From Patescibacteria group bacterium (GTDB lineage Bacteria; Patescibacteriota; Microgenomatia; JAMCZE01): a DNA stretch of 64,000 bases. The first letter of the stretch is position 1. Every line of letters starts with the position of its first letter. Positions 9,678-38,850 of the stretch are shown one piece after another. The notes beneath the pieces are model-generated. The model was not told the origin of the DNA and did not search any database. It saw only the letters and a list, made by a program, of their open reading frames with translations. The stretch lies in contig JAMCRP010000002.1 in assembly GCA_023380635.1 (NCBI GenBank), forward strand, positions 42,458 to 106,457, read 5' to 3'. The position numbers and the translations under genes are program-made.

Positions 9678-9717
9678 TAAGTATCTTAAGATACTTAAGT
9701 TACTTAAGATTCGTAAG
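9678..9717. repeat. tandem 9-bp 'nnnCTTAAG' array (4 units) immediately upstream of ndk
   Basis: tatcttaag atacttaag ttacttaag attcgtaag; period 9; ends 1 bp before the ndk ATG. Confidence 0.8.
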
Positions 9718-10299
9718 ATGGAACGGACTGTAGTTCTTGTCAAACCTGATGGCGTCAAGCGTGGCCTCGTGGGGGAAATTGTGGGCCGCTTCGAGAAAGT
9801 CGGCCTCAAAATCGTGGCGATGAAAATGGTGTGGGTGGATGAGGAATTAGCTGGTAAACATTATCCCACCAGCCGGGCCGATTGGGTTAAAAAGGTCGGT
9901 GACAGGACTTTGGGTTCCTATAAAGAATACGGCCAGGACGCCAACGAGTTGTTGGGGACTATGGATCCGGTAGAAGTGGGGAAATTGGTTTGTAAGTGGT
10001 TGGTGGGATTTTTGACCGGCGGCCCGGTCGTGGCCATGGTTTTGGAAGGCCCGCACGCAGTGGAAATAGTTCGCAAAATGGTTGGACATACGTATCCGCT
10101 TAAAGCAAATCCTGGGACAATCCGCGGGGATTTAATGATCGACAGTCCGGCGGTTTCCAACACTAAAAAACGTGCCATCCAAAATCTGGTTCATGCATCC
10201 GGAAGCCCGGAAGAAGCGAAGTTTGAAATGGAACTGTGGTTCCATAAAAACGAGATTCACGACTACAAACGCGTTGATGAAGAATTAATGTTTGGCTAA
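9718..10299 (+). CDS. ndk: nucleoside diphosphate kinase (long form with a ~45-aa insertion)
   Basis: MERTVVLVKPDGVKRGLVGEIVGRFEKVGLKIVAMKM and the later NxxHASGS-type region; 193 aa versus ~140 aa in a typical Ndk. Confidence 0.9.
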   Translation: MERTVVLVKPDGVKRGLVGEIVGRFEKVGLKIVAMKMVWVDEELAGKHYPTSRADWVKKVGDRTLGSYKEYGQDANELLGTMDPVEVGKLVCKWLVGFLTGGPVVAMVLEGPHAVEIVRKMVGHTYPLKANPGTIRGDLMIDSPAVSNTKKRAIQNLVHASGSPEEAKFEMELWFHKNEIHDYKRVDEELMFG

Positions 10300-10305
10300 C
10301 TTTTG

Positions 10306-10377
10306 TCGGGGTGCCGAGAATTGGACTCGGTGCCTCTCGGTCCCGAACCGAGCGTTCTACCGATGAACTACACCCCG
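10306..10377 (-). tRNA. tRNA-Pro (anticodon CGG), CCA not encoded, atypical T-loop (TCCAATT)
   Basis: Hand fold of the minus strand: perfect 7-bp acceptor stem (cggggtg/caccccg), U8, 4-bp D-stem gttc/gaac with a GG-containing D-loop, 5-bp anticodon stem ctcgg/ccgag, loop ttCGGga (U33, G37), 5-bp T-stem ccgag/ctcgg with G53-C61. The T-loop has C at position 55 instead of the usual T/psi. Confidence 0.6.
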
Positions 10378-10395
10378 TGAGGACTAATTTTAGCA

Positions 10396-10446
10396 CAAAA
10401 CTTGCTTAAGAGTCTTAAGTGCCTTAAGATACTTAAGGAGCTTAGG
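10396..10446. repeat. tandem 9-bp 'nnnCTTAAG' array (5 units) upstream of an avd-like gene
   Basis: ttgcttaag agtcttaag tgccttaag atacttaag gagcttagg; period 9. Confidence 0.8.
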
Positions 10447-10454
10447 TTCGATTT

Positions 10455-11027
10455 ATGGTCTCCAAACTGCCGCCACACAAGTATCTTCTTTCTTACCGTT
10501 ACACAGAATTGACTCATGACGGGACAGTGCAGTTCACGGCAAGGTTTTTAAGCGATATTATCCATCGGCGGACGCGCGAACAGATGGACCAGGCAGCCCG
10601 TTCCGGTAAACAAAATATTGTTGAGGGTTTTGGGCGCGACCTGACTTCGAAAAAAAGCGAGATTACCTTGCTTGATGTTGCCCGGATGTCACTTGAGGAG
10701 CTGACAACTGATTATGAAGATTTTCTAAGACAGAGAAACTTGGCCATTTGGCCAAAAAATGACCCGCGGATAATGAGATTTCGGGAGCTTGGTTTTCGTC
10801 TAAGCAACGAGATAAATTTGGATAAATCAGGCACTTTTAAAGAGAAACTGGCTTTACCTGCTGATTCTGAAGTAGCTGCTAATTTAATGCTAACCTTGTG
10901 CCACCAAGCTTCTTATTTGCTTTTTCGTCAGATCAAGGCGGTGGAAAACCGGCTGATTCAGGAAGGGGGTTATTCGGAAAACCTGTATCGCCGGCGCGAA
11001 GAATTTCGTAGAAATAACCTTAAGTGA
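10455..11027 (+). CDS. four-helix-bundle protein (23S rRNA IVS protein / DGR Avd-like family), long form
   Basis: AARSGKQNIVEGFGRDLTSKKSEITLLDVARMSLEEL matches the family core (R-S-x-SI-x-NI-x-EG-x-GR ... FL-x-IA-x-GS-x-EL). Paralogous to 37211..37813. Confidence 0.7.
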   Translation: MVSKLPPHKYLLSYRYTELTHDGTVQFTARFLSDIIHRRTREQMDQAARSGKQNIVEGFGRDLTSKKSEITLLDVARMSLEELTTDYEDFLRQRNLAIWPKNDPRIMRFRELGFRLSNEINLDKSGTFKEKLALPADSEVAANLMLTLCHQASYLLFRQIKAVENRLIQEGGYSENLYRRREEFRRNNLK

Positions 11028-11084
11028 TAAAATGAGCGTAGCGAATTTTACTAACCGAACGAAAGTGAGGTGTTTAAAATTCAC

Positions 11085-11110
11085 TTAAGGAACTTAAGGC
11101 ACTTAAGTTG
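11085..11110. repeat. tandem 9-bp 'nnnCTTAAG' array (3 units) upstream of tRNA-Arg
   Basis: tcacttaag gaacttaag gcacttaag; ends 6 bp before the tRNA. Confidence 0.75.
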
Positions 11111-11115
11111 GATTT

Positions 11116-11191
11116 GCCCCCATAGCTCAAATGGAAAGAGCAATCCCGTCCTAAGGGAAAGATCTCCGTTCAATTCGGAGTGGGGGTACCA
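11116..11191 (+). tRNA. tRNA-Arg (anticodon CCT), CCA encoded
   Basis: Acceptor gccccca/tgggggt (G1-U72 wobble), D-stem gctc/gagc with loop aaatggaaa, anticodon stem tccc/ggga with loop gtCCTaa, T-stem ctccg/cggag with canonical T-loop ttcaatt, discriminator A plus CCA. Confidence 0.85.
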
Positions 11192-11869
11192 ATGAAAGCA
11201 GAAGTCTTCAAGGTTTTTGTCCTTCGCTGGATCGGAAATTTTCTGGTCCTCTCGGCAGTGGCGGCGGTGGTGCTCACTTTTGCTCCGGCGGTTCAGGCGG
11301 AAATTACTTACCGCGTCAACGTCGCCAGGAATGTTCATTATGTGGTGGCCGGAGATCTACCCCCGGCAAAGTTTGAAACGACCTCTACAAACCTTCTGGC
11401 AAAGTCAGAGACAATTTTAGAAATTAATCCGCTGTCAACAGAGTTTGGAATTGTGATTCCCAAAATCGGGGCCAATGCCAAGGTCATCCCGAATGTCGAT
11501 CCGGGAAACGAAACTGAATACTTGGCCGCCCTAAAAGAGGGTGTGGCCCACGCTGCCGGCACTGTCTTTCCTGGCCAGGTCGGCAACTCTTATCTTTTTG
11601 CCCATTCGGTCGGCAATTTCTGGGAAGTGTCCCGCTGGAACGCAGTGTTTTATTTATTAAAGGAACTGGAGCCGGGTGACGAAGTGGATTTGTTTTACAA
11701 AAATGTCCGTTATGTGTATGTTGTGTATGACAAAAAGGTGGTTGAGCCCGATGATACGCAATATCTTACGACCCAGGCTAACTTTCCGATGCTAACTCTT
11801 CAAACCTGCTGGCCGCCGGGGACAACTCTCAAAAGACTCCTGGTTTTTGGGAGACTGAAGAATATTTAA
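11192..11869 (+). CDS. sortase (transpeptidase) with N-terminal membrane anchor
   Basis: Catalytic LFAHS (His) and TLQTC (sortase TLxTC Cys motif) plus a downstream Arg. The start at 11192 (MKAEVFKV) lies just past the tRNA 3' end; the listed ORF start at 11180 overlaps the tRNA. Confidence 0.8.
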   Translation: MKAEVFKVFVLRWIGNFLVLSAVAAVVLTFAPAVQAEITYRVNVARNVHYVVAGDLPPAKFETTSTNLLAKSETILEINPLSTEFGIVIPKIGANAKVIPNVDPGNETEYLAALKEGVAHAAGTVFPGQVGNSYLFAHSVGNFWEVSRWNAVFYLLKELEPGDEVDLFYKNVRYVYVVYDKKVVEPDDTQYLTTQANFPMLTLQTCWPPGTTLKRLLVFGRLKNI

Positions 11870-13185: not shown

Positions 13186-13236
13186 GGTATCCTGATTTTA
13201 TCACAGTTGCTATAATGTTCCTAATCGACCCTCTCA

Positions 13237-13345
13237 ATTTGAAATTTACAATTTACAATTTGAAATAAATATCAAATTTGAATTTTTTGAATTTGAAGAA
13301 TTGAAATTTCATTGAAAATTTCAAAGTTCAAATTTCAAATTTTGT
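13237..13345. repeat. A/T-rich 8-bp periodic 'AATTT(G/C)AA' array immediately upstream of mreB
   Basis: caatttgaaatttacaatttacaatttgaaat...gaatttgaagaattgaaatttcattgaaaatttcaaagttcaaatttcaaatttt. Confidence 0.8.
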
Positions 13346-13347
13346 GT

Positions 13348-14481
13348 ATGTTTGGTAAGCGCCTTGGTATCGATCTCGGCACCGCTAACTCTCTGGTTTA
13401 TGTCGTGGACCAGGGAGTTGTGGTTAATGAGCCGACGGTGGTGGCCGTGGCCGTTGACGACGGCAAAGTGCTGGCGGTTGGCAACGAAGCCAAGCAGATG
13501 ATGGGCCGAACCCCAGGAAATATCCGGGCGTCCCGGCCGATGCGCGACGGCGTCATTGCCGATTATATTGTTACCGAGGCAATGCTGCGCTATTTTCTCG
13601 ATCGGGTCTGCGGTTCGACGCGCTTTTTTAAGCCGGAAGTCATGATTTGCGTTCCGGCGGGGGTTACCCAGGTGGAGCGGCGGGCGGTGCTCGACGCGAC
13701 TTTAAGCGCCGGGGCCAAGGTGGCTTATTTAATTGACGAACCGCTGGCAGCGGCCATCGGCGCCAAAATTCCTATTGCCAACCCGAACGGGAACATGATC
13801 GTCGATATTGGCGGGGGCAGCACGGAAGCGGCGGTAATTTCCCTGGGTGGGGTGGTGGTTCACAAAAGTGCTCGGGTGGCCGGAAACAAAATTGACGAGG
13901 CGATTGCCAACTTCATTAAAAAAAAATATAACCTCTTAATCGGGGACACGACAGCGGAGGATATCAAGATTCAGATCGGGACAGCTGTGCCGCTTGGGAA
14001 GTCTCAGTCATCAGTTCTCGGTGGTCGGTTTTCGGAATCTGGTTCGTCAGTTAACCAGTTTTCAGTCCACAAAACTGAAAACAGAAAGACTGAAAAACCG
14101 GAAACTGAAGACAGACAACTGAAAACCGATAGCCGGACCATGGAAGTCCGGGGCCGGGACGCCGCGAGCGGCCTTCCAAGGATCATTGAATTCACTTCTG
14201 ATGAGGTAGTTGAGGCCGTCACACCAATACTTTCGCAAATTGTCACTGCTGTGAAGGGAGTGCTAGAGGAAACGCCCCCGGAATTGGCTTCAGACATAAT
14301 CGATAGGGGAATCGTGCTCAGCGGAGGTACTTCACTCCTTCGAAATTTGGATAAACTGATGACCCATACTATTGGTGTTCCGGTTCATACAGCCGATGAC
14401 CCTCTGTTTTGTGTGGTTAAGGGGTGCGGCATCGCCATGGAGAACATCGATTTATACAAACGGAGCATTAGCAAGAGGTAA
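13348..14481 (+). CDS. mreB: rod-shape-determining protein MreB (actin-like ATPase) with a low-complexity insertion
   Basis: GIDLGTANSLVYV, GVIADY and IDIGGGSTE actin-fold motifs. The listed ORF starts at 13312 inside the A/T repeat; the MreB-like start MFGKRLGIDLG is at 13348. A ~45-aa insertion (SQSSVLGGRFSESGSSVNQFSVHKTENRKTEKPETEDRQLKTDSRT) is encoded by an imperfect palindrome at ~14000-14140. Confidence 0.9.
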   Translation: MFGKRLGIDLGTANSLVYVVDQGVVVNEPTVVAVAVDDGKVLAVGNEAKQMMGRTPGNIRASRPMRDGVIADYIVTEAMLRYFLDRVCGSTRFFKPEVMICVPAGVTQVERRAVLDATLSAGAKVAYLIDEPLAAAIGAKIPIANPNGNMIVDIGGGSTEAAVISLGGVVVHKSARVAGNKIDEAIANFIKKKYNLLIGDTTAEDIKIQIGTAVPLGKSQSSVLGGRFSESGSSVNQFSVHKTENRKTEKPETEDRQLKTDSRTMEVRGRDAASGLPRIIEFTSDEVVEAVTPILSQIVTAVKGVLEETPPELASDIIDRGIVLSGGTSLLRNLDKLMTHTIGVPVHTADDPLFCVVKGCGIAMENIDLYKRSISKR

Positions 14482-14554
14482 CCCATAAGAATCTTCAGTC
14501 GCATTAGAAATTCTAGTTCTATAAACGGCATATTCACGCACGACAAAATGTACT

Positions 14555-14592
14555 CATTTTTGAAAATTTCGAATTTCAAATTTCAAATTGCG
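14555..14592. repeat. A/T-rich 8-bp periodic 'AATTT(G/C)AA' array downstream of mreB
   Basis: gaaaatttcgaatttcaaatttcaaattgcg. Confidence 0.7.
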
Positions 14593-15551
14593 ACTGGCCG
14601 ATAGCCGCGTGGTGGGGGAATGCGGGAAAATTTACCGGAAACTAGATCAAAATGTAGCAAGGGCAAAATTGAAAAAAACGCTTTTTGACCAGAAACCGGT
14701 AATAATTCCCAAAAATCTTCTAAACCCTATAATCTTTTGAAAAATTAAACGCTCTTTTTTGGCTTTTGAAACACCCGGTGGCAGATCTTCCGGCCGGTTT
14801 TGTTTCCTGTCTTTGGCAAAAATCGGAAAACAAAATGAAACAGTGGCAGGGAAGTGTCACAAACATTTAAGAACTGGCGAGAGTCAAGGCCGGTAAAGTA
14901 ACCTTCAAAGACAAAATGTCGAAATCCCTACATTGCCGTCGGTAATGACGGCTTTTCGAAATTAATTTCTCTCTTGCCGAGCCGAAGTTTCGAACGACGG
15001 CCGGCGGGCCACGGTTTTAGACTTCCAATAATTTGGAACCAAGCTTTAAAGCAAGGGGAAGACCTTATAGGACTATCGGTCTATTGTACAGGCGAAATAG
15101 AATTGTCTGTTTGGTGGCTAAAAAACTGCCGGAAAAGGGTTCCAGGTTAAAAGCGGTGACCAAAAAACAACTGAGATAGCCTTAAGATACTCTGATGCAC
15201 TACCATATATTAATATGTGGTCTGTTGCTTTGTCATCCGGCTTAAGGAATTTTTAACTCCAAACTCCAAAAAGACCTGGAACATGATATTTGAAATTTCC
15301 GATTTCCAGGGAATATGGGAGTTCTTTAATTTTTCACGGCTTTTCAGGACCAAGGTTTTTTGCCCGGAAACCCGGGAAAATTTTTCACTGAAGTCAATTG
15401 CTTCTTGACAGTAATCATTATTGTATGACTATACTTAATTAGGTCCCCGGAAGTCCCGGGAAGTCATCGAAAAGCTTGGCCTGAGAAGCTAAAAGCCATA
15501 AACGACGAAAAATTAATCTCTGTCTCAGAACTGATCGTTAAAGCCCGGTTA

Positions 15552-20261: not shown

Positions 20262-20300
20262 AATTTTCAATTTGAAATTTAAAATTTGAAATTAGGTTTG
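20262..20300. repeat. A/T-rich 8-bp periodic 'AATTT(G/C)AA' array between the giant gene 1 stop and the tagA-like start
   Basis: aaattttcaatttgaaatttaaaatttgaaattaggtttgaatt. Confidence 0.75.
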
Positions 20301-20302
20301 AA

Positions 20303-21097
20303 TTGTCTCTAATGAGAAAAGTTGTCTTGGGCGTTAATATTGATGATATTTCGAAAGAAGAAGCCCTTAGTCTGGTCAGTAGTTGGTTAACTGGTAAACT
20401 AGAGACTAGTAAACCAGCGACCAGCAAACTGGTGTTCACTCCCGGGCCGGAGTTTTTAGTAACGGCGGACAAAGACGCGGAATTTAAAAAAGTTTTAAAC
20501 TCTTCAGACTTGAATCTTCCGGACGGTTTTGGGTTAAAACTTTTGGGTGGCGTGGAGCATACCATTGCCGGGGTCGACTTTGTCAGAGTTCTTTGCCAAC
20601 TGGCAGCTAAAAACGGCTGGACTGTCGGCCTGCTGGGCGGACAAACCGGCATTGCCCGGCTGGCGGCTAAAAATTTGCAAAAAAGCTATCCCGGGTTAAA
20701 AGTTACTTTCGCTTTTGACGGGCCCGCAGCTGACAAAATCCTGACACATTCCGACACATTGCCATATAGTGATATTCTGTTTGTAGCCTTTGGACACCCT
20801 GCTCAAGAAAAATTTCTCGCAGAGCAGAAAGCGTCAAGCGTAAAGCGTAAAGAAGGAAGACTTGACGCTAAACGCTTTCCGCTAAACGCCATCCCGTTCC
20901 GCATCGGTATAGGTGTCGGCGGCAGCTTTGATTTTATTTCCGGGACTGTGCCCGAACCGCCGGTTATGTTAAAGAGATTAGGACTAAAATGGTTAGGCCG
21001 GCTTCTGAGCAGGCCGGCTTATATGGCCCCTAAAGTTTTCCGGGCCATTGTTTCTTACCCCCTTTTGATATTGAATTCCCGTCTCTGTAGCCGTTAA
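20303..21097 (+). CDS. WecB/TagA/CpsF-family glycosyltransferase (N-acetylmannosaminyltransferase-like)
   Basis: GVNIDDISKEEALSLV...TPGPEF...DLNLPDGFGLKLLGG...RVLGVDFV...GWTVGLLGGQTGIA...YPGLKV: collinear with the WecB/TagA fold family. Carries an extra SSVKRKEGRLDAKRFPLNAIPFR segment. Confidence 0.7.
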   Translation: MSLMRKVVLGVNIDDISKEEALSLVSSWLTGKLETSKPATSKLVFTPGPEFLVTADKDAEFKKVLNSSDLNLPDGFGLKLLGGVEHTIAGVDFVRVLCQLAAKNGWTVGLLGGQTGIARLAAKNLQKSYPGLKVTFAFDGPAADKILTHSDTLPYSDILFVAFGHPAQEKFLAEQKASSVKRKEGRLDAKRFPLNAIPFRIGIGVGGSFDFISGTVPEPPVMLKRLGLKWLGRLLSRPAYMAPKVFRAIVSYPLLILNSRLCSR

Positions 21098-33200: not shown

Positions 33201-35321
33201 CCGGCGCTGGGGCTGGATTATGCCCTAGGCATTAACCCTGCCGGGAGCTTGGTGACCAGTCTGAACGGGACCTCGAACGCCTTGATGGCTATTACCCAGG
33301 ATGGTAAAGTCGGCATCGGGACAACTGCGCCCACGGCTCTTCTTCAGGTTTTTGGTAACGGCACCACTCAGGTGGCCAGTGTCTCGGCTTCTACCGGGAA
33401 AGCGGCTCTTTTGGTTGACAACACCGTTGGCGACCTCTTTACCGCGTCTTCTTCCGGAATGTCCCGGTTTGTGATTACGCAAAGCGGCAACGTCGGCATC
33501 GGGACAACGGGGCCAGGAGATAAACTCCATGTCGCAGGGGGCAATATTATAATTGAAGGATCTGGAGCTGGTGCAAGTCCTCGTGGTATTAAAACCCGTT
33601 ACACATCAAGTGACTCTTATTCTGGTAGTTTAGGTTGGAATGGTCTACAGCTTGGCAATAATGGACCAAATTATATTGTCGCTGGTAATTCAGCAACAGG
33701 TGGAAGTCTGAATTTCATTGTAAATAATTCTAATAGCTTGGGGACTGGAACAGATTATGGGACTGCTAATGGAACAAATGCAATGACAATATTAAGCAGT
33801 GGTAATGTCGGCATCGGGACAACGGGGCCAAATAAATTACTTGATGTATATAAATCTCAAAGCAGTGTCACCGACGAGTCGCAAGCGGCAGCGGCTTTCG
33901 GTGTCACTACGACGGGAGGTATCTATGGATATATCACTCCTAATCAGACTGGAAAAACAGTCACATTCGCTGGAGTTCGAGGCGGTCAGGCTAACGACGT
34001 ATCGCTGCTCTTTAACCCAGCTGGCGGCAACGTCGGCATCGGGACGACGGGACCTTTGGGCAAGTTAGATGTCGGCAACCAAATGTATGTTCAGTCAAAC
34101 GGAACCATCGAGAGTCCAGGCAGCAAGAACACGACTAACGGAATGATTGAAACATACTATAATGCTGGTGACAGATATGGTTTAGGTCAACTTTCCAATG
34201 GAGTAACAGCTTTGTACACATCCGATGCTTACAGCCCCAGCTCAATACAGTTTGGAAGAATAGACAGCAGCAACAATTTCATCTCTCTGATGGATATTAC
34301 CCATGGTGGCAATGTCGGCATCGGGACGACGAGTCCGGGCTATCTTTTAACCGTTAACTCCAGCACCCCAGGCTGCAACGGGTGTACCGCCTGGACAAAC
34401 TACTCTGATATCCGCCTAAAGGAAAACATTGCTTCCGTCTCCGGGGGAATTTTAGACAAAATTTTGCAACTAAACCCGGTGACTTTTAACTACAACGACA
34501 CCTACTATACCCAAACGGGTTATTCCCGCCCTGATGGCCAAACACCAACTTACACTGGCTTTATTGCCCAGCAGTTGCAAACGATTTTTCCGGAAATGGT
34601 TTCCACCTCCAGTAATGGTTATCTTGACACCAACCTTTCCAACTTGCAGATCTATCTGGTTAAAGGTATGCAGGAACAACAGGGAGAAATTGCTTCCCAG
34701 TCAGCCCAAATTGCCACCATGTCGGCCACACTTTCGGCCTGGAACGACCTTCTGGGGACCCCCTCAGCCTCTTTAGCCGAGTCTGTCGCCCGCCTAGACG
34801 GGTTATCAGCCGATATTTCCTCTTTAATGGCCGATAACCTCCAGATTAAATCCGATATCCAGCTTCTTAAAGAGCAAATGGCCACAGTTTCGGCTAACTT
34901 GGCTCAGGTTTCTTCCCAAACCGCTTCCAATTCCGCTTCTCTGGCTTCCTTAAGTCCCTTAAGTAACTTAAGCATCTTAAGTGATCTGGAAGTCTCGACG
35001 GTTTCGGCTTCCTTTGCCAACTTTTCTGACACTCTCAAGGTCGTGGGCAAGACCCAGCTGGCTGATACTAACATCGGGGGCAGCTTGACCGTGGGGTTGC
35101 TGCACTTTGACGATTTGAAAGCGGAGATATCCAGCTTAACCGGCACGGTTACCATTAACAGCAATTTGCAGGTGGCCGGAGACGCCACGGTGTCGGGAAC
35201 GCTCAAAACCGCCACGGCAGAAACTGACGGAATCAGTCTTAAAGATGAGGTGACGGGGGATTACTATTGTATTCGGATGCACAGTGGCGAGATTGCCAAA
35301 ACCCCCGGGAAATGCCAGTAG
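21228..35321 (+). CDS. giant membrane-anchored fibre-like protein (4697 aa): 2x MerR-type HTH, single TM, tail-fibre-like repeats, 2x ConA/LamG-like lectin domains, C-terminal peptidase-S74 intramolecular-chaperone domain
   Basis: Two N-terminal copies of LLKIGDAAKFLNVSIQTLRRWDESGKLKPVVTPGGTRFYEKQAL (MerR/HTH_17 pattern IGExAKxxGVSxxTLRxYExxGLLxPxRxxxGYRxY). TM helix identical to giant gene 1. Seven GNVGIGTT(S/G)P-type motifs. LamG/ConA-like jelly-roll domains at ~28.12-28.73 kb and ~31.46-32.15 kb (AWSFGAWFKTT...NWHFGVVTYDG...KIYADGQL). S74 domain at ~34.40-34.69 kb (SDIRLKENI...LNPVTFNYN...TGFIAQQLQTIFPEMV...YLDTNLSNLQIYLVKGMQEQQ). The start is ambiguous: TTG at 21228 or GTG at 21267. Confidence 0.85.
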   Translation: MTNLFKSPHTDYAVKKSTDAGLLKIGDAAKFLNVSIQTLRRWDESGKLKPVVTPGGTRFYEKQALKNIRVGNGVRETDGTGEMKSEQQVTKKTGKFSKRGLVKIGTAAKLLGISIPTLRRWDEMGKLRAVVSPGGTRLYSKDSLAAINPALSEYKILKSEEPEIKPAKQFIKEVVSEVLHQQKAVLQLPPPVNPIQTISEWSQEPVHYRAETEAGRIAGYFQKPPPEDTRNKIQETRETPNTRKKRSWKSFAYTLPAVLATILLLLTTGLNIYITSYQKKVASDRNLQAVLAESSSQNFLDIRADTDVSGRLTVWGKDVLTEATLASSSPYLSNLNQSLSTTATPTFANLTLTAGKIVLEDKTQTLKNKSLSGSDNTFSNIPNSALANSKVTVTAGTNLTGGGDVVLGDSTTIGLKDNISVTSVTSSALTVNGDAAITGNLNVGGGLQFSSLAVTGTSGTAPVASISGKTSFAAVVVDNSGSGDLFTASTAGQPRFTVNSNGDLLPGITSHQSIGSPTQVWDTIYANNLSGTNWSGNIIGTQYGGTGQDWHLTAQGNVPYFSASGTMNTLAPGTNHQVFVTQGVGANPKWEDLVNLLTPGTDITLGGTNVVTINDASTLQSVTGRGAATTNPITLNLTGGNAYFGSGNASALVDLSSTSKGFLTPRMTQAQRDAISTPAPGLLIYNTDTNQFNVYNSSTWGAIAGAGAAYWGDNIGALYPLYLNSDLLIGSDATASALIRLEGTTGYITANRINGNKIATGSGNVAVSATLPLAVDTNGNMTLAYTSNLKVTSSQLDTAQNIGPSASPQFVSLTLGSGTTGTLQTAALTGSRTWTLPDNTGEICTTYGNCIGGVGGSVGGSGTNTKIAMFTPDGTHIGDSHITDTGTQIQFFNTSNYIDSSGNFYLNGSLFASGNEAGFWQRQSGVLAPKNITDSLIIGGNATGSGQLQVYGLNSQMPVASISAQTPWAALVVDNATGDLFTASSSGMTRFTVGNTGNLTAGTYNTATITGGSLSATAVNGVATANILTTGTTFAGDVGGSYNNLAIGTGKVTNPMLSGPVDTTHGGTGNDWHLTAQGNVPYFSAAGTMGLLAPGTASQVLTTGGGGADPAWTNMASLVTGAGNITVTGTQTLSINTVNNPTFSTSVTTPLLTNSGNLLINPTGNVGIGTTSPAALLSVGTNSDLRVNGTGDIVARTYNGNIIATGSGTLTLGSASLNIGTGGTLNTGAYADISLYAPLASPTFTGTVTIPTSFVLGATTVTTTGTQLNYLNAATGTTGNTNSNLVFSNGPTLTSPAFSTIVNVGTLTLPTTSDTLVGRATTDTFTNKTFDTAGTGNILRINGTQVSAVTGTGSVVLASAPTISNPIITNINPGADFTLTQNSVTPFISYNSGALANTLVLSAGSVGIGVTNPGAKLDVAGAASISGILTLNNGVTTQINATNDRSLDLGFANTGRVNFLTTSSYIDANGNFSTNGQIQVGSFASAPTALGAGSMYYNSTENRLYAYNGTNWSPLGEQSTVVVTNNSGTTLNPKDLVIFDSSANNAVTTTTTAYKKGVVYGVVVDASCASGATNCKVQISGKVDVSVTNSNAAKGDYVFTSTTAAKGVTSAKLFDGLIGIVTDNTNAGSGYVTIIFQPQAQVLAGVVMDKISRHNDYKIYSNIYTPINEGSVFSPNLTARGISFDNFLDQTKVDAALTTVGSTMSAQIQSPTAQTSAPFRMGLTGGQTYNTTNTDNAGNAYLGSNTVNKVFYYDRTRDSIPQVQVELGIDPNWYNGVTLSVASTSAQFSQADTITKPNPNLSTAYNGSLVKVSGTYPTQAATRTIYLTITSPTQFTWSDGAVGANNVSINPGVSQALGTTGVSVTFTNVKYNPGDVFRIASWVVEPASSTRGSKAQFPERSYVIGTASSVDIIDADTNKLWMRFTINATSWAVTTMLIDASSSVTALNGTIYSSQGASGLLKIVFDRDTGFGFTTDWTNYGGTFRGGIAQRNTQNGYAQNVPLNIVNNTVNDISAAVIPNQPTQTVTTSGWGYMYLNAAGSNYEVVNLPYKFNDIPKVVISASAERATAPTNYGDCSWGISTNFVANTYSATTSNFGATIATPGSGTTTGYICYTWTATGVVSPRQYVAVGTNQGVTVINETDQSGVNYSTVSSGDHNVGSVFLTSNDNLYFSYPWSYPTDVKVAVQYGVAGVTSNVAWDSWSGNYASIGNSWSNKGPTPLQSSTNYQIFVTSGTSTIDGKSNTIYVSGSNGLTVIQEKQAGRFGTAESYVPSDENNGSVKYYTKDYISEEMVGDIRGMWPLNGTLSDASVKGNTLTDGGIAFGTGVRGQGAVISGLSFLYCTDASCGGTSKLDSGGTAWSFGAWFKTTSTGGTIISKYNGGVSGAYFLAVDGSGKLSGDIEQSPYTFTGNKIVNDGNWHFGVVTYDGVSAKIYADGQLDSLVAMTGNIPDTTANFAIGARYTGGSVSNILLGSIDEPFVSATALTANQIKHMYEVGARALQSHSASLGGGAADANQKLGTNVASVSAAAVDYNNQFMYVGANDSTNGGVSKIDLNSDTNIRTIQTANTPVGGTVLPAKTVSSLAAGYNLEVVGTGTGAIGMAPDDNANNLSGTLYSKTLTTPESFSQAYIWSQQVTDAADAANTVTVWASNDGGSNYYQCNQTNTDSTQTPTEYEYFCQFNAVGSSLKIKEVFARGSTKTNTYVTRYGVAWIDSSNAIGSNPLGNGMYTNNATVADSSYLEVAHNQNTADAVANAWISSESKWKQLDATYKPVAAYDGLSGVLSEYHDLAANYKTGDLVSTPSGILFDTFKDITKTASAASTLSLDFGKNRVGLMGGQTFNTTNTDSDGNALLGSNTVNKVFYYDRINKDSSPQVQVELGVDPNWYNGVTLSVATTSAQMSQSETTVPAGKNPNLSTTYNGSLVKVTGTYATTAAARPIWITISDNSSFVWTDYNGNGGTASLQQGVTQALGSTGVSVTFTGTKYNIGDVFKIASWFVEKPSATRGSKQQFPERSYVVATAASVDIIDADTNKLWMRFTGADGNIIHFPTGFTYNVPSVTALNGTLYAGIQRTNGAWGNLTSVYFSRDSSSGITSGSTFPYPGVISQRNSALGYPLALSTVTIANSYVNDVSAAVIPNQPTQTVTVSGWGYIQGNGSTPYVSETVNFPYKFNNLPVVNINFSGGTSTTAPTKLSDCAANWRVEAHAESIGNNSFTAKTALTETGDGNTSATGYYCYTWTATGQVSPRQYVGVATNGGATLINETDQSAVNYGDTAQFSRIALTSKSHMYIARDSNVGEIRVFNNAAGLGAGFSSDMLLFPTSSCTNQPCYLAEAAGGNGHGPTSLFVTDGTSTVNGSADTVYVGTAVGLSVFQLNNTNANLGDGQGEIQSSSVKYYTKDYISEEMVGDIRGMWPFNGSGAITQNSTTFTDASVKADPLVSKGTGAAYASGVRGTGVSLNGTNDYFCPNGGSGSTCTDVSSLKITGNSISVGAWMKSSATCSVFQDVISKEDNTTGNSWRITMDSGNHARFDTTFAPVYGVAATGTTNICDGKWHYLVGVYNNGDTQKIYVDGRLEGTGAAQSATVRDVTAPVAVGAEFNNGTPGNYFKGTIDEPFVTATTLSANQIKHMYEVGARALQSHSASLGGGAADKNQQLAGAAGNPTNLVKAVGVDYNNQYMYVSNSEAGLNQNNGGVSKIDLNSDTNVYTYKNGSTPAQLDSEISSLAVGYNLEAMSSTASGVLNPGIDAFASATSGSFFSNTYVLPKPIASAVIWTSAYKDTADSGSTQTIKASVDGGSTYATCNLLSTDYNPATPERAYGCEFAASGQNLKVEFDLARTSVKSNNYVSQYGITWLGQNGFRVEQTNNNTVRLYNYSGESANVRLDVITGGLGRNAGTISLAPSAADVDAQNNSNSLWINKTGAGGNLLKLQVSGADKLTLDANGLMTLTGNFVPGADNTYDLGASSSARFRNLYLGPGSLHIQSKSTDTGYPALGLDYALGINPAGSLVTSLNGTSNALMAITQDGKVGIGTTAPTALLQVFGNGTTQVASVSASTGKAALLVDNTVGDLFTASSSGMSRFVITQSGNVGIGTTGPGDKLHVAGGNIIIEGSGAGASPRGIKTRYTSSDSYSGSLGWNGLQLGNNGPNYIVAGNSATGGSLNFIVNNSNSLGTGTDYGTANGTNAMTILSSGNVGIGTTGPNKLLDVYKSQSSVTDESQAAAAFGVTTTGGIYGYITPNQTGKTVTFAGVRGGQANDVSLLFNPAGGNVGIGTTGPLGKLDVGNQMYVQSNGTIESPGSKNTTNGMIETYYNAGDRYGLGQLSNGVTALYTSDAYSPSSIQFGRIDSSNNFISLMDITHGGNVGIGTTSPGYLLTVNSSTPGCNGCTAWTNYSDIRLKENIASVSGGILDKILQLNPVTFNYNDTYYTQTGYSRPDGQTPTYTGFIAQQLQTIFPEMVSTSSNGYLDTNLSNLQIYLVKGMQEQQGEIASQSAQIATMSATLSAWNDLLGTPSASLAESVARLDGLSADISSLMADNLQIKSDIQLLKEQMATVSANLAQVSSQTASNSASLASLSPLSNLSILSDLEVSTVSASFANFSDTLKVVGKTQLADTNIGGSLTVGLLHFDDLKAEISSLTGTVTINSNLQVAGDATVSGTLKTATAETDGISLKDEVTGDYYCIRMHSGEIAKTPGKCQ
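26270..32790. repeat. diverged internal tandem duplication (~3.1-3.4 kb unit x2) within giant gene 2
   Basis: Copy A ~26270-29390 and copy B ~29640-32790 are collinear at protein level (G(I/L)(S/L)FD-x-F-x-D-x-TK ... NTVNKVFYYDR ... QVQVELG(I/V)DPNWYNGVTLSVA ... SSVKYYTKDYISEEMVGDIRGMWP ... HMYEVGARALQSHSASLGGGAAD ... VDYNNQ-x-MYV ... GGVSKIDLNSDTN). There is a 56-nt exact DNA match at 28075-28130 versus 31417-31472. Confidence 0.85.
34938..34985. repeat. in-frame tandem 9-bp 'nnnCTTAAG' array inside giant gene 2
   Basis: tcccttaag taacttaag catcttaag tgatctgga encoding SLSPLSNLSILSDLE; the same unit family as the intergenic arrays at 9.7, 10.4, 11.1 and 38.8 kb. Confidence 0.7.
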
Positions 35322-35365
35322 AATTTGAAATTTGAAATTTACAATTTGAACTGAATTTGCAATTT
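35322..35365. repeat. A/T-rich 8-bp periodic 'AATTT(G/C)AA' array between the giant gene 2 stop and an avd-like gene
   Basis: gaatttgaaatttgaaatttacaatttgaactgaatttgcaatttaaatg. Confidence 0.75.
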
Positions 35366-35367
35366 AA

Positions 35368-35733
35368 ATGCCTCAATTTAAAAATAACTATGATTTAGAA
35401 GAGAGGACGGTTCGGTTCTCCGAGAGTCTTGTAGATTTTCTGAAGGCGTGTCCAAAAACAGTAATTACTATTCCTTTAATTGATCAAGGACTGCGAGCGG
35501 GAACCAGTATTGGGGCTAACTATCGGGAAGCAAACGGAGCTTCTTCTAAAAAGGATTTTAAAAACAAAATATTTATTTGTAAAAAGGAGGCAAAAGAGAC
35601 AATCTATTGGTTAAGATTGTTAGGCAGAGTGCTAGGTGATGGTAATCTGAAACAAAAGTGCAGAAACTTATACCAAGAAGCCAGCGAATATGTCTTAATT
35701 TTCGGAAAAATTGCCAGTAGTTGTAGAGAATAG
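35368..35733 (+). CDS. four-helix-bundle protein (Avd-like / 23S rRNA IVS protein family), canonical short form
   Basis: LRAGTSIGANYREANGASSKKDFKNKIFICKKEAKETIYWLRLL is the textbook family signature (R-x-G-x-SI-x-AN-x-x-EA ... KDF ... KEA-x-ET-x-YWL-x-LL). Confidence 0.8.
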   Translation: MPQFKNNYDLEERTVRFSESLVDFLKACPKTVITIPLIDQGLRAGTSIGANYREANGASSKKDFKNKIFICKKEAKETIYWLRLLGRVLGDGNLKQKCRNLYQEASEYVLIFGKIASSCRE

Positions 35734-35754: not shown

Positions 35755-35800
35755 AAGTGAATATTAATTTCAAATTTTAAATTGTAAATTTCAAATTGGA
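35755..35800. repeat. A/T-rich 8-bp periodic 'AATTT(G/C)AA' array upstream of the GalT-like gene
   Basis: attaatttcaaattttaaattgtaaatttcaaattgg. Confidence 0.75.
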
Positions 35801-35802
35801 GT

Positions 35803-36672
35803 ATGGCCAAATTTGTTCCCGATATTAAAACCAACCGCTGGGTGGTGATTGCCCCGGCCAGAATTTCCCGGCCGCATGACAACACTCCGTTTGCCGTCCA
35901 GGCGCCTCAGGCGCCGGTCTGTCCCTTTTGCCCGGGGCAGGAAAGTCTGAACAAAGAACTATTTAGAGTCGGCGATCCTTGGAAAGTCCGGGTCATTGCT
36001 AATAAGTATCCGATAACCGATTATCACGAGGTCATTATCCATTCTCCGGATCATACTCACGACCTGGATACTTTGCCCATCAACCAGGTGGAGTTAATCC
36101 TAACCACCTACCGGCAGCGTTATAACTTCCATAAAAATTCGGAGCATGACGGCCAGGTGATGATTTTTAATAATCATGACATTCACGCCGGGGCGAGTCT
36201 CGCGCACCCACATTCCCAAATTGTGGTTGTTCCCAAGCAAATTAACCTGGATACCGTTCAGAAGGAGCCGGTCCAAAATGAAGTGGTCAGAACAAACTTT
36301 TTTGTGGCTTATTGTCCGGATTTTTCCCAGTGGCCCTACGAAATTTGGATTGCGCCATTAATCGAAGGCAAAAATTACGGCGAAATTTCCGACGAGGAAA
36401 TCAAGGATCTGGCGCCATTAATGCAAAAGCTTATCGGGTTTATTAATAATAAATTCAAAGAAGAGGTTAAGCTTCACCAGCCGATGGAAAAGTCGGACGA
36501 AACGGGGGAGACGCCTTACAATTATTATATTTACCACGGCCAGGACTGGTATCTGCGTATTATTCCCAGACTGGTTCACCGGGCGGGATTTGAGTTGGGA
36601 ACAGGGCTCTCTGTAAATATAATTGACCCGAGTGTTGCGGCGCGGGAGTACCGAGAGGGAATTGCGTCCTGA
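35803..36672 (+). CDS. GalT-like HIT-superfamily nucleotidyltransferase (galactose-1-phosphate uridylyltransferase-like)
   Basis: N-terminal zinc knuckle CPFCPG and His-x-His motif AHPHSQIVVVP (GalT HPH-type active site); ~290-aa two-half HIT-like layout. Confidence 0.6.
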   Translation: MAKFVPDIKTNRWVVIAPARISRPHDNTPFAVQAPQAPVCPFCPGQESLNKELFRVGDPWKVRVIANKYPITDYHEVIIHSPDHTHDLDTLPINQVELILTTYRQRYNFHKNSEHDGQVMIFNNHDIHAGASLAHPHSQIVVVPKQINLDTVQKEPVQNEVVRTNFFVAYCPDFSQWPYEIWIAPLIEGKNYGEISDEEIKDLAPLMQKLIGFINNKFKEEVKLHQPMEKSDETGETPYNYYIYHGQDWYLRIIPRLVHRAGFELGTGLSVNIIDPSVAAREYREGIAS

Positions 36673-36858: not shown

Positions 36859-36881
36859 CGGACACAGTAAATCATATTCTC

Positions 36882-37088
36882 ATGCCTGGGCTTAATCAAA
36901 ATATCTCAATCGAAAACTTACCCGATCTTCTGACCGTCAAAGAAGTCGCCCAACTTCTTCGCGTTTCTGTCCTTACCATCAAACGCTGGGGCAAAAGAGG
37001 AAAATTGCCCGCCATCCGCATTAATTCAAGAGGGGACAGACGATATAAGAAAGAGGCGGTTTTGTGGCTATTGGGAATGGGTAAATAA
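36882..37088 (+). CDS. excisionase/MerR-superfamily HTH (HTH_17-type) DNA-binding protein
   Basis: LLTVKEVAQLLRVSVLTIKRWGKRGKLPAIRINSRGDRRYKKEAV is the same HTH type as the N-terminal modules of giant gene 2. Confidence 0.7.
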   Translation: MPGLNQNISIENLPDLLTVKEVAQLLRVSVLTIKRWGKRGKLPAIRINSRGDRRYKKEAVLWLLGMGK

Positions 37089-37191
37089 TCCAACTCTTCA
37101 CGCAAGCTCTTTCTTGCGATCCTCCTTCACTTTGCTCAGTCCGGGTCTAAAAAAGGAGGCGGTTCTTTGGTTGCTCGGTATGGGTAAGTAA
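37047..37191. repeat. duplicated gene 3' end: the last 13 codons plus stop of the HTH gene recur ~65 bp downstream with synonymous changes only
   Basis: aag aaa gag gcg gtt ttg tgg cta ttg gga atg ggt aaa taa (37047-37088) versus aaa aag gag gcg gtt ctt tgg ttg ctc ggt atg ggt aag taa (~37150-37191). Both translate to KKEAVLWLLGMGK*. The spacer carries the hairpin cgcaag-ctcttt-cttgcg (37101-37118). Confidence 0.8.
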
Positions 37192-37210
37192 AACCTGCTA
37201 CTATAAATTA

Positions 37211-37813
37211 GTGGCAAAAGCTGGTTTCGAATATCTTCTTGCCTACAAAATCACGGTGCCGATCTACGATTACACTGTGGCTTTCTGCAATTGTTACCCG
37301 CCGTTAGCTCCTAATCATCCTAATTTCTCCAATTTTTCCTATCCTCGTCTCTCTTCAACCCGAACCTATGACCAAATGATTCAGTCGGCACGGTCGGGGA
37401 TGACTAATTTGGCTGAAGGTCATCAGCAGCAAAGCCTTGAAGGCTATATTAAACTTTCAGGAGTTAACAGAGCCTCATTAGAAGAACTTTTAAAAGATTA
37501 TTTAGCTTTTGCCAGACAGAACCATCTAGAGGTCTGGCCAAAAGAGAGATCAAGAAGAGAAATTCGAGAAATTGGAGAAATATGGGGAATCTTAACAAGA
37601 ACTTCGACACTGCCGGACAACCCAAATTTTCCGCCGCTTCCAAACGACCCAACCAAAGCGGCGAATTTTATGATTACTCTGATTAATCAAGCCAATTACC
37701 TGCAGGATCGTTTGAATCTTGCTTTAGAAGACAAATTTGTTAAGGAAGGCGGTTTTCGGGAGAATCTTTTCAAAAAACGGATGGCTTACCGCAATAAAAA
37801 AAGTCCCGCTTAA
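37211..37813 (+). CDS. four-helix-bundle protein (Avd-like family), long form; paralogue of 10455..11027
   Basis: MIQSARSGMTNLAEGHQQQSLEGYIKLSGVNRASLEELLKDYLAF and C-terminal EGGFRENLFKKRMAYRNKK; collinear with the 10455 gene (EGGYSENLYRRREEFRRN). Confidence 0.7.
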   Translation: MAKAGFEYLLAYKITVPIYDYTVAFCNCYPPLAPNHPNFSNFSYPRLSSTRTYDQMIQSARSGMTNLAEGHQQQSLEGYIKLSGVNRASLEELLKDYLAFARQNHLEVWPKERSRREIREIGEIWGILTRTSTLPDNPNFPPLPNDPTKAANFMITLINQANYLQDRLNLALEDKFVKEGGFRENLFKKRMAYRNKKSPA

Positions 37814-37826
37814 GCGGGACTTTCTC
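37795..37826. terminator. bidirectional rho-independent terminator between the convergent avd-like gene and rplL; the loop contains the TAA stop of the avd-like gene
   Basis: aaaaaaagtcccgc-ttaa-gcgggactttctc: a perfect 9-bp stem (aagtcccgc/gcgggactt) flanked by A- and T-runs. Confidence 0.75.
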
Positions 37827-37853
37827 TAATTACTCTTATTGCTCTAATTGCTC

Positions 37854-38237
37854 TTATTTCAATTCTGCAGTGGCTCCGGCAGCCTCCAGTTTTTTCTTAG
37901 CTTCTTCTGCAGTGGCTTTGTTCACTCCTTCGACGACATTCTTGGGAGCGGATTCCACCAAAGTCTTCGCTTCAGCCAGGCCCAGGGTCGGGACGACTTC
38001 GCGAACGGCTTTAATGACGGAAATCTTGTTGGCACCGGCGTTAGTCAGAACAACATTGAAAGTTGTCTGTTCCTCAGCGGGACCCGCCTCCGCTGAAGCT
38101 CCGGCGGGCGAAGCCGCTACTGAAACCGCGGCAGCGCTCACACCAAACTTTTCCTCGAGAGCTTTGACGAGCTCAGCCACCTCGAGAACAGTCATTTTTT
38201 CGACTTCGTCAACGATTTTTTGAGTTTTATCAGACAT
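37854..38237 (-). CDS. rplL: 50S ribosomal protein L7/L12
   Basis: [33 protein letters not shown]...Ala-rich hinge...[31 protein letters not shown]...ELK. Confidence 0.95.
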
Positions 38238-38239
38238 TT

Positions 38240-38320
38240 ATAGTCACCTCCAGGAAAATTTGAAATTTACAATTTTAAATTTGAAAATTCAATTCAAATT
38301 TCGAATTTCAAATTGAGAAT
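38240..38320. repeat. A/T-rich 8-bp periodic 'AATTT(G/C)AA' array between rplJ and rplL (upstream of rplL)
   Basis: ggaaaatttgaaatttacaattttaaatttgaaaattcaattcaaatttcgaatttcaaattgagaatt. Confidence 0.8.
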
Positions 38321-38784
38321 TATTTTTTAACTTGTGTCAGTAAGTATGCTAGTTTCTGAGTATTCGCGTTAAGAGTAAACATGAGCTGGGCGATTAAGCC
38401 TTCTTTTGACGGCAAACTGGCGATCCGGGTAGTTTCAGCCGCGTCATATTCAGTCCCGCCCAAAACGCTCATTTTGACCGCCGGTTTGGAATTAGTTTTA
38501 ATAAATTTGACCAATTCCCGAAGCGGAGCAAATTCGTCTTCATAAGCTAACAGGACAGCAGTCGGGCCGACGCTGGTGACTGGTTTCTGGTTTCTGGTAG
38601 AGGCAATGTTTAGCAGGCTGTTTTTGACCACAACATATTCCGCGCCGGCTTTTTTGACGCTTTTGTGCAGGTCTTCCATCTGTTTGTGGGTGAGACCCTG
38701 ATAGTCGGTTAAAACCAGGCCCTTGGCTTTTTTGAGCTTTTCTTCCAGTTTTCCGACGGTTTCGATGTTTTTAGCTTTAGGCAT
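38320..38784 (-). CDS. rplJ: 50S ribosomal protein L10 (short form)
   Basis: N-terminal KxxxxVxxLxExLxKAxGxVLTDYQGLT...MxxLRxxVKKAGAEYxVVKNSL pattern; position between rplA and rplL. Confidence 0.9.
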   Translation of the reverse strand: MPKAKNIETVGKLEEKLKKAKGLVLTDYQGLTHKQMEDLHKSVKKAGAEYVVVKNSLLNIASTRNQKPVTSVGPTAVLLAYEDEFAPLRELVKFIKTNSKPAVKMSVLGGTEYDAAETTRIASLPSKEGLIAQLMFTLNANTQKLAYLLTQVKK

Positions 38785-38810
38785 TAAAAAACTCGGTCAA
38801 AGACCGAGCG

Positions 38811-38850
38811 AAACTTAAGTAACTTAAAATTCTTAAGAAACTTATGATGC
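38811..38850. repeat. tandem 9-bp 'nnnCTTAAG' array in the rplJ leader region
   Basis: aaacttaag taacttaaa attcttaag aaacttatg; ~30 bp upstream of the rplJ start on the minus strand. Confidence 0.75.

Follow-up and report, generated by a model that had tools for sequence, protein, structure and literature searches.

The stretch of DNA analysed here, called the window in the following, comprises 64,000 nucleotides of contig JAMCRP010000002.1 from a Patescibacteria group bacterium (assembly GCA_023380635.1, positions 42,458 to 106,457 of the forward strand). It holds five tandem arrays of the hexamer CTTAAG, two of which flank a small gene for a four-helix-bundle protein. This gene, here named suffix gene w1, and its two arrays form a cassette of the layout array/gene/array between the divergent genes for tRNA-Pro(CGG) and tRNA-Arg(CCT). 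The other three arrays are solo copies at or in ordinary genes. Allowing one mismatch per array unit, the following features were defined:

9676-9717: array 1, five units (four exact CTTAAG and one CGTAAG), solo, in the spacer between an M16 peptidase gene and ndk
10305-10377, minus strand: tRNA-Pro(CGG), left boundary of the cassette insertion site
10405-10446: array 2, upstream (UP) array of the cassette, five units (four exact and one CTTAGG)
10455-11027, plus strand: suffix gene w1, 190 amino acids, isoelectric point (pI) 9.5, NCBI MCL4398051.1
11084-11107: array 3, downstream (DN) array of the cassette, three exact units
11116-11191, plus strand: tRNA-Arg(CCT), right boundary of the cassette insertion site
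34949-34981: array 4, four exact units, solo, in frame in the open reading frame (ORF) 21228-35321
38814-38846: array 5, two exact and two one-mismatch units, solo, between rplA and rplJ of the minus strand

The window has a GC content of 48.4% and contains 29 CTTAAG sites, for which 11 of the 28 successive distances were exactly 9 bp. The tandem pair CTTAAGN3CTTAAG was found 11 times compared to 0 times in 100 dinucleotide-preserving shuffles. Chance was ruled out as the source of the arrays on the basis of these shuffles and spacing counts. When the periodic scan was relaxed to matches at 14 or more of 18 core positions (three units) or 18 or more of 24 (four units), the five regions and a weak sixth candidate (14484-14507) were recovered, compared to 0-0.3 hits in shuffles. 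The period of the arrays is strictly 9 bp, and the spacers vary within each of them. A first, sequence-only reading of this DNA had listed the same five arrays; all of them exist at the places given, with small corrections at their exact ends. It had interpreted them as a promoter-proximal family, an interpretation which, as set out below, is only partly supported.

The tRNA-Pro gene, absent from the sequence-only reading, adjoins array 2 and has its own extended -10 element (TGCTAAAAT on the minus strand, with TAAAAT at 10392-10387). The motif TGnTAAAAT was found 9 nt ahead of the tRNA-Pro 5' end in both the window and the related locus L098. Array 2 ends 8 nt ahead of the w1 start codon at 10455, with TTCGATTT between array and ATG. 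Array 3 ends 8 nt before tRNA-Arg, with TTGGATTT leading to the 5' end of the tRNA, and DN arrays were also found at the same locus in L098 and L124. In w1 itself a lone CTTAAG (11019-11024) abuts the stop codon, and the internal array site is decayed to RLSNEINLDKSG.

The label "avd-like" originally given to w1 is correct at the family level. The protein matched PF05635 with E = 1.9e-6 and 28.5 bits, under the Pfam cut-off of 33.8, and it matched TIGR04258 (the "four helix bundle suffix" domain, 55.7 bits) and TIGR02436 (29.6 bits), both over their cut-offs. These three models were the only matches, and neither an HUH/Y1 motif nor a known catalytic site was found. The AlphaFold2 model (predicted local distance difference test score 91.7) is an all-helical bundle, in which the array-encoded segments fall in loops (residues 32-37 and 118-137). 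The top solved structures in Foldseek, 2gsc and 2rld, are themselves PF05635 proteins without an assigned function; their E values were only 0.06-0.5. Cassette proteins are basic, with pI values of 9.3-9.5. Both the ORFs found in 23S rRNA intervening sequences (IVS) and the Avd protein of diversity-generating retroelements (DGR) belong to PF05635. DGR Avd thus shares the family with w1; however, the cassette neighbours are ndk, two tRNA genes and a sortase gene, and no reverse-transcriptase domain was detected in the 19 ORFs scanned, which are part of the window's ORFs. PF05635 ORFs reside in rRNA intervening sequences, including those of Patescibacteria (10.1101/2024.02.27.582315), and the literature treats them only as functionally uncharacterised passengers of Patescibacteria rRNA insertions and cas loci. 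No account of the arrays or of a gene-repeat association was found in the searchable literature.

The tRNA-Pro/tRNA-Arg site is polymorphic among relatives. In L119 and L102 it is empty, with a 43-45 bp spacer and neither array nor gene; L119 is the closest relative found (M16 peptidase 66% and sortase 67% identical). Arrays 2 and 3 form the two ends of one inserted gene cassette. The array-gene-array structure fills the site in the window, L098, L121, L124 and L128. In L122 tRNA-Pro and the cassette are present, and no tRNA-Arg is found on its short contig. The entire 50-bp spacer between tRNA-Pro and the gene is made of array units in L124 (4788-4838). In L121 the tRNA-Arg starts 2 nt past the stop codon of the cassette gene (2963-2966) and therefore must be co-transcribed with it. 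A further cassette, in L127, sits between rplA and the rplJ promoter. An insertion of the cassette into a pre-existing array was rejected, since non-palindromic flanks are inverted, not direct, and arrays also occur inside the ORF. Several metagenome-assembled genomes (MAGs) titled "uncultured Gammaproteobacteria" (L022, L050, L087, L090, L096, L098, L107, L111, L116) carry Microgenomates-style arrays, two of them (L098 and L050) also with the cassette, which in L098 occupies the same tRNA-Pro/tRNA-Arg site as in the window. These titles look like wrong taxonomic labels.

The CTTAAG arrays are the lineage-specific signature repeat of the four-helix-bundle suffix cassette, and the repeat core co-varies with the clade and the paralogue of the protein, the period with its architecture. 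Homologues of w1 adjoin arrays in nine loci ascertained by their arrays, including one from Symbiothrix (Bacteroidota). For a gene-ascertained set, a metagenome scan with the w1 protein returned 80 loci. In close homologues (mostly >50% identity) CTTAAG arrays were located 0-9 bp ahead of the start codon, inside the ORF at about +70-90 and +330-370 nt, and 9-12 bp past the stop codon. Distant homologues had no CTTAAG arrays; other 9-bp cores were found at the same places (GTCnGAC, TAGGnCCTA/ATAnGnC, TnAGGG, GATCnG). At least one array of 9-bp period within the gene +/-100 bp was present for 74 of 86 suffix-type genes, placed upstream, in frame in one or two surface loops, and/or downstream, and the density of such arrays was 1.97/kb near suffix genes versus 0.049/kb in the other 570 kb of the same loci, approximately 40-fold. 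Core classes formed contiguous clades in a neighbour-joining tree of 93 proteins. Loci with a core of the ATAnGnC (TAGGnCCTA) class range from 34 to 63% GC, and the core is therefore not set by composition. The contigs L130, L129 and L143 each have two cassettes with different cores. The same is true for the window, where the cassettes of w1 and of a suffix paralogue, w3, differ in core:

37211-37813, plus strand: suffix paralogue w3, with its own ATTnCTC-type 9-bp arrays, not CTTAAG
37307-37345 and 37543-37595: internal w3 arrays, in opposite orientation
37814-37869: downstream w3 array

Upstream of w3, at 37050-37191, approximately 40 bp encoding the C-terminus of a small excisionase-like helix-turn-helix ORF are duplicated (KKEAVLWLLGMGK and a stop, twice), which may mark the w3 insertion. 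Among cultured bacteria, a suffix-type gene is present in Prevotella nigrescens (WP_004367454.1), closely followed by a CCTAGG nonamer array.

Analysing the unit itself, spacer position 7 was T in 60% and position 9 was A in 67% of the Patescibacteria units, and the unit is therefore described as the 8-bp palindrome ACTTAAGT plus one free base. The Bacteroidales unit is TCTTAAGA plus one base. The modal unit number was 4 or 5. Reading by hand, other nonamer cores (GTCnGAC, TAGGnCCTA) were also found dyad-symmetric, and non-palindromic cores occur as inverted array pairs. Identical neighbouring spacers were depleted (4 observed versus 10.5 expected; 1989 of 2000 shuffles at or above the observed value), and neighbouring variable bases were complementary in 10 of 152 cases versus 9.8 expected. 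Selection for hairpins was rejected as an explanation of the spacers, as symmetric or neighbouring spacers were complementary no more often than by chance. From the complementarity and identity counts, the arrays are neither selected perfect hairpins nor fresh products of slippage.

Copies inside ordinary genes show at which level the cores are constrained. Array 4 lies in frame, in the L-S-x phase, in the 4697-aa ORF 21228-35321 and reads tcC TTA AGT ccC TTA AGT aaC TTA AGC atC TTA AGT, i.e. SLSPLSNLSILS. TTA makes up 20% of the Leu codons and AGY 37% of the Ser codons of the window, under which usage four consecutive TTA-AGY pairs have a probability of approximately 3e-5. Coincidence, one of two origins once offered for this copy, is contradicted by the relatives. 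A scan of one genome per species for three exact units gave at least 120 matches, and the figures given here apply among the matches listed. In related Patescibacteria loci, 19 of 54 arrays were found in frame inside long, ordinary ORFs (flank-based tests). The reading phase was in each case one of the two that lack stop codons, giving (L-S/R-x)n or (L-K-x)n. Host proteins comprised a MurE-like ligase, a P-type ATPase, O-antigen-ligase-like proteins, arginyl-tRNA synthetase (ArgRS), argininosuccinate lyase, endonuclease III and a family-2 glycosyltransferase. Three orthologues of the glycosyltransferase (61-64% identical) retain the TTA-AGT codons of the array; flanking synonymous sites differ. 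Given the codon odds and the codons kept across the diverged glycosyltransferases, the constraint on array cores acts on the nucleic acid, not on the peptide. A peptide-level cause of the in-ORF copies was rejected on account of the codon usage, the two reading phases and the other peptides encoded elsewhere, e.g. (SDx)n, which were read by hand in other clades.

Varied-spacer arrays recur in many Microgenomates-type Patescibacteria (Gottesman-, Davies-, Levy-, Chisholm-, Shapiro-, Roizman- and Collierbacteria) and in a few termite/rumen Bacteroidales MAGs, the remaining matches being perfect microsatellites in scattered taxa. Solo arrays are also dispersed over intergenic spacers and occur in a leader RNA, both in Patescibacteria of the Microgenomates type and in some Bacteroidales; intergenic ones often take up the whole spacer between co-directional genes, others lie at gene 3' ends. 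Two termite-gut Bacteroidales MAGs, Tannerellaceae Kf353_bin89 (L021-L084) and Symbiothrix Hs463_bin62 (L008-L120), have many CTTAAG loci each, with TCTTAAGA+N units, typically five of them, and 86% of the arrays outside ORF interiors; the loci observed include L097 3850-4750. In Symbiothrix a suffix-type gene is flanked by arrays on both sides. Some arrays of these MAGs belong to a larger repeated element with conserved flanks (L024, L048, L120). In the Microgenomates MAG locus L064 (4650-6100, minus strand) a suffix-type ORF continues in frame across a long CTTAAG/CCTAAG array and joins a prepilin-like ORF (FTLLELLIVV...) lacking a separate start codon. In L083 the ArgRS ORF holds a CTTAAG array (5798-5821) about two-thirds of the way along.

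A scan of viral contigs yielded 66 arrays and no four-helix-bundle gene, most arrays being conserved phage coding LKxLKxLK motifs or perfect microsatellites; plain-type relatives, described below, were not found in viral contigs either. One contig of this set, IMGVR_UViG_2703719087_000001 (37.5 kb; L256, L265, L277, L293), carries no fewer than six CTTAAG arrays, of which five have varied spacers. Its fetched parts contain no four-helix-bundle gene, and it may be a misclassified cellular contig. PADLOC gave no defence-system match and tblastn against phages no match, and a link to defence systems or phages, likewise without support from the viral-contig scan, was dropped.

The association extends to a second gene type with a second period. 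The 120-aa plain members of the family have no nonamer arrays and are bracketed by inverted heptamer arrays, as is the case for one gene of the window:

35368-35733, plus strand: plain four-helix-bundle gene w2, flanked by AAATTTG-type (35313-35356) and, inverted, CAAATTT-type (35755-35807) heptamers

Heptamer-bracketed plain genes were also found in further Patescibacteria loci, in one case with the gene inserted between atpA and atpG, and on plasmids of cultured cyanobacteria (Nostoc, Anabaena, Dolichospermum, Planktothrix). Their flanks in the window, the Patescibacteria loci and cyanobacteria are near-perfect inverted heptamer arrays of approximately 28 bp, for example (GTCGGAR)n/(YTCCGAC)n in Nostoc punctiforme PCC 73102 (gene product WP_012413011.1) and (AATTCGT)4/(ACGAATT)4 in N. 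flagelliforme. In Anabaena cylindrica the plain gene lies between cas2 and cas1. Arrays of 9-bp period were found at 74 of 86 suffix-type versus 0 of 12 plain-type genes (Fisher p = 3e-9) and arrays of 7-bp period at 3 of 86 versus 8 of 12 (Fisher p = 5e-7), where the p-values overstate the significance because the loci are phylogenetically non-independent.

Short tandemly repeated repetitive (STRR) heptamers of cyanobacteria have been known since 1990. Like these, the arrays described here consist of short tandem units which are dispersed in the genome, mostly intergenic and also inside genes and structured RNAs. The window has five arrays of one unit family in 64 kb, recurrent arrays occur in many Microgenomates and in single Bacteroidales MAGs, and the heptamer arrays around cyanobacterial plain genes resemble classical STRRs, as do those in the window. 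However, CTTAAG arrays have a period of 9, not 7, the heptamers forming a separate family in the same window, and their units are a palindrome plus free base with varied spacers, whereas cyanobacterial arrays are near-perfect repeats. No link between STRRs and a particular gene family was found in the searchable literature.

How the gene and its repeat are connected was weighed among several explanations. Our tentative preference, held at somewhat less than even confidence, is that the arrays are putative cooperative binding sites for the basic protein of the cassette, with one dimer per 8-bp palindrome in a 9-bp register. Each array would offer 3-5 contiguous ACTTAAGT-plus-base units on duplex DNA, to which symmetric oligomers of the protein would bind cooperatively, one dimer per unit, in a layout like that of MetJ on met-box arrays or of the omega repressor on heptad arrays. 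At its own gene such binding might serve autoregulation, or it might pair the two cassette ends and so help to maintain or move the cassette; at solo arrays, binding might incidentally occlude start sites, as at ndk, or act as a roadblock. The comparison is with the 8-bp met boxes of MetJ, the 7-bp heptads of omega from pSM19035 and the ParR/parC iterons, which present 2-10 gapless units at the gene of the regulator, just as the cassette has 3-5 contiguous symmetric units 0-9 bp before the start codon. Those regulators, however, are ribbon-helix-helix proteins with proven binding, whereas binding by the PF05635 protein is only inferred, and the cassette differs further in its 9-bp period and in sites inside ORFs across the genome.

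A wider proposal, which we consider doubtful in its full extent, would make PF05635 proteins in general the partners of dispersed tandem arrays, the suffix type with nonamers and the plain type with heptamers including STRRs. The cassettes would then be foldback-like and transposase-less, and the protein would recognise its own array, act preferentially in cis, and seed or maintain arrays. Seeding and maintenance in cis would explain the arrays in its own ORF as well as the solo arrays at housekeeping genes. The association of gene and repeat resembles the relation of repetitive extragenic palindromes (REP) to REP-associated tyrosine transposases (RAYT), in which a single-copy gene is flanked by the dispersed palindromic repeat of the genome, the repeat family follows the gene lineage and several orthogonal pairs occur per genome. 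In contrast, the partner here is a four-helix bundle and not an HUH/Y1 (IS200/IS605-like) transposase, and the repeats are tandem arrays, also inside the partner ORF, instead of single hairpins.

Several points weigh against binding by the cassette protein. The PF05635 fold has no demonstrated sequence-specific DNA binding, and the best structural matches, 2gsc and 2rld, give no functional hint. Co-inheritance of a gene and its flanking repeats could, with no recognition at all, produce the co-variation of core and period, and the period counts carry the phylogenetic bias mentioned above. Operators within the ORF of the regulator itself are unusual. Almost no solo arrays occur outside Microgenomates, so that a genome-wide "regulon" is not general. 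Finally, the inverted partner of every non-palindromic array fits stems in nucleic acid equally well.

This last point leads to RNA. Intervening sequences of rRNA are excised by RNase III at the stem formed by their flanks. Correspondingly, UP and DN arrays, which are complementary to each other where the core is palindromic and inverted otherwise, might pair into a long imperfect stem, from which RNase III would free the mRNA for the four-helix bundle, with solo arrays as leftovers. We regard this main rival as rather unlikely, although a number of observations agree with it. The plain cassettes with their near-perfect inverted flanks and the inverted partners of non-palindromic arrays would both provide stems, the window arrays fold better than shuffles, into modest hairpins (z = -1.8 to -3.2), and cassettes lie inside operons, e.g. 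atpA/atpG and cas2/cas1. PF05635 ORFs are moreover known from rRNA intervening sequences, including Patescibacteria (10.1101/2024.02.27.582315). As in the 23S rRNA IVS, the ORF is placed between pairable inverted repeats and inserted within transcribed units; the cassette differs in its location in a tRNA intergenic spacer instead of an rRNA helix, in its tandem flanks and in its internal and solo repeats. The variable base shows no compensatory pattern (see the complementarity counts above), cutting at internal arrays would destroy the gene's own mRNA, and the tandem short-unit flanks and the solo cores kept in ORFs at 61-64% identity are left unexplained.

Improbable, in our opinion, is a selfish dispersed satellite with no dedicated protein, STRR-like and spread or homogenised by recombination or gene conversion, in which the ORF merely travels along and conservation is concerted evolution. 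It was retained because co-inheritance alone could yield the co-variation. Solo arrays are indeed gained and lost among relatives, as the ndk array is missing from the same junction in L119, L121 and L122, and arrays often replace the whole intergenic spacer. Flanks with a palindromic core are also direct repeats, between which recombination would leave a solo array. Arrays also sit in permissive protein loops, and here the likeness to Rickettsia palindromic elements, palindromic DNA in frame in protein loops, is evident for ArgRS, the MurE-like ligase, the P-type ATPase and the glycosyltransferase. The cassette ends, in turn, recall eukaryotic Foldback elements, with terminal inverted repeats built of short tandem subrepeats. 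The CTTAAG solo inserts differ from both in being far shorter (24-45 bp), strictly periodic and tied to a small ORF family, with no transposase. A satellite does not account for arrays that are concentrated 40-fold at a single gene family in several phyla and nearly confined to the gene in most lineages, nor for the distinct cores kept by two cassettes on one contig, and the depletion of identical neighbours argues against recent slippage or conversion. For the same reason, namely varying spacers instead of identical slippage-prone units, the arrays differ from phase-variable microsatellites.

The promoter interpretation holds that the arrays are promoter or UP-like elements, maybe bidirectional, which drive ndk, the four-helix-bundle gene, tRNA-Arg and rplJ, with decayed last units (TAAGTT, TAAGAT, CTTATAAT) as -10 boxes of leaderless or near-leaderless transcripts. 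It is quite improbable. Array 1 is the whole 42-bp spacer, beginning right after the TAA stop of the M16 peptidase gene and ending directly before the ndk ATG (9718), with no Shine-Dalgarno sequence between array and ATG. At the cassette ends the geometry is suggestive at first sight. A distance of 6 nt separates TAAGTT (11104-11109) from the 5' end of tRNA-Arg, and likewise TAGGTT (10443-10448) from the w1 ATG, and an identical 8-nt tail, TTSGATTT, comes after array 2 and array 3. Of the 8 cassettes examined, 4 have the first base of their last core at -11 or -12, the distance to the ATG being only loosely fixed. Because of the filled spacer in L124 and the position of tRNA-Arg in L121, a promoter must there lie in or upstream of the arrays, and some cassette-end arrays may have a promoter role. 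A promoter scan of 9550-11250 found 3 matches, one of which (TTGAAA-17-TAAGAT, 9664-9692) overlaps array 1, versus 1.8 +/- 1.5 in shuffles, i.e. no excess near arrays. A -35/-10 geometry generated by the 9-bp register was not supported: it cannot in general set such hexamers 16-18 bp apart, only 9k-3 offsets fitting (spacer 18), and no excess over shuffles was seen. Canonical TTGACA/TATAAT promoters occur elsewhere in the window. The tRNA-Pro gene and the tRNA-Arg gene of L098 keep canonical -10 boxes apart from the arrays, the array lying at a variable distance upstream of the box in the case of tRNA-Pro. The situation at rplJ is as follows:

38777-38928, minus strand: rplJ promoter (TTGACG-18-TATAAT, 38928-38899) and L10 leader RNA (38906-38777)

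This promoter is near-consensus, matching 11 of 12 positions, and the leader matched the full-length Rfam model RF00557 (L10_leader) with 40.1 bits (gathering score 44) and E = 2.5e-5. Array 5 lies in the AU-rich linker of this match, between the L10-binding stem and the terminator hairpin (38809-38791). Being downstream of the promoter and inside the leader, it is transcribed and not a promoter element. The idea that array 5 is the footprint of a cassette as in L127 was rejected, since the latter lies upstream of the promoter. As a third of the arrays lie inside ORFs and others at gene 3' ends, the arrays are not sigma-70 promoters as such. Of the transcriptional rather than translational role suggested by the sequence-only reading, the action at the nucleic-acid level stands and a factor-binding array remains the best guess, while a promoter-proximal family does not describe the arrays well. 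The outcome named in that reading as refuting it, no enrichment upstream of genes, did not occur, as arrays are depleted in ORF interiors (35% versus 55% for random segments); the same bias would be expected of any insertion that is tolerated mainly outside ORFs.

CTTAAG is the recognition site of AflII. DNA roles unrelated to the cassette, namely AflII-type restriction-modification or methylation clusters, uptake sequences or phase-variable contingency repeats, are very remote despite this match, the ComEC competence gene in the window and the frame-preserving 9-bp unit: CTTAAG outside the arrays is neither avoided nor enriched (12 sites versus 16.6 expected for the whole window), uptake sequences occur as many isolated copies instead of short arrays, contingency repeats need identical units where here spacers differ and identical neighbours are depleted, and the tie to one gene family and the different cores of other clades would stay unexplained.

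Other repeat families were observed in the window. Fuzzy arrays of 7-bp period with the core AAATTT(G/C) fill many spacers, e.g. between rplJ and rplL and before mreB; their positions are:

13228-13353, 14553-14608, 15274-15307, 20256-20304, 35313-35356, 35755-35807, 38252-38324 and 54107-54221: AAATTT(G/C) heptamer arrays

The ArgRS ORF (5914-7650) has an in-frame insert of approximately 90 bp (7323-7413) near the start of the DALR domain; in this insert a short loop separates four GACTACN heptamers from four inverted NGTAGTC heptamers. A CAAGA(T/A)A heptamer family lies inside long ORFs, at 2381-2433 (leucyl-tRNA synthetase), 16191-16251 (ORF 15552-20261) and 21901-21952 (the giant ORF), with no cognate gene seen in the window. 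An inverted pair of arrays of 8-bp period (CATTGTTn and nGCAATGT-like) occupies 43238-43317, between ORFs 41976-43241 and 43306-44586.

Taken together, the arrays are not a promoter family; they are a signature repeat which brackets and interrupts a small four-helix-bundle gene, with extra copies between and inside ordinary genes. For annotation this means that CTTAAG arrays should not be labelled promoters, and that an (LSx)n or (LKx)n stretch encoded in frame in a Patescibacteria protein is an insertion at the DNA level. The partnership of gene and repeat spans Patescibacteria to Bacteroidota and, as heptamers, cyanobacteria. PF05635 has thousands of members, whose locations include intervening sequences of rRNA and the intervals between cas, restriction-modification and atp genes, and homologous cassettes in cultured Prevotella nigrescens, Nostoc punctiforme and Anabaena cylindrica make the partnership accessible to experiment. 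If true, our proposal would link the dispersed STRRs, the PF05635 family and the odd short inserts in housekeeping proteins and RNAs of Patescibacteria, and lineage-specific, orthogonal repeat "codes" would offer a testable hypothesis for all three puzzles.

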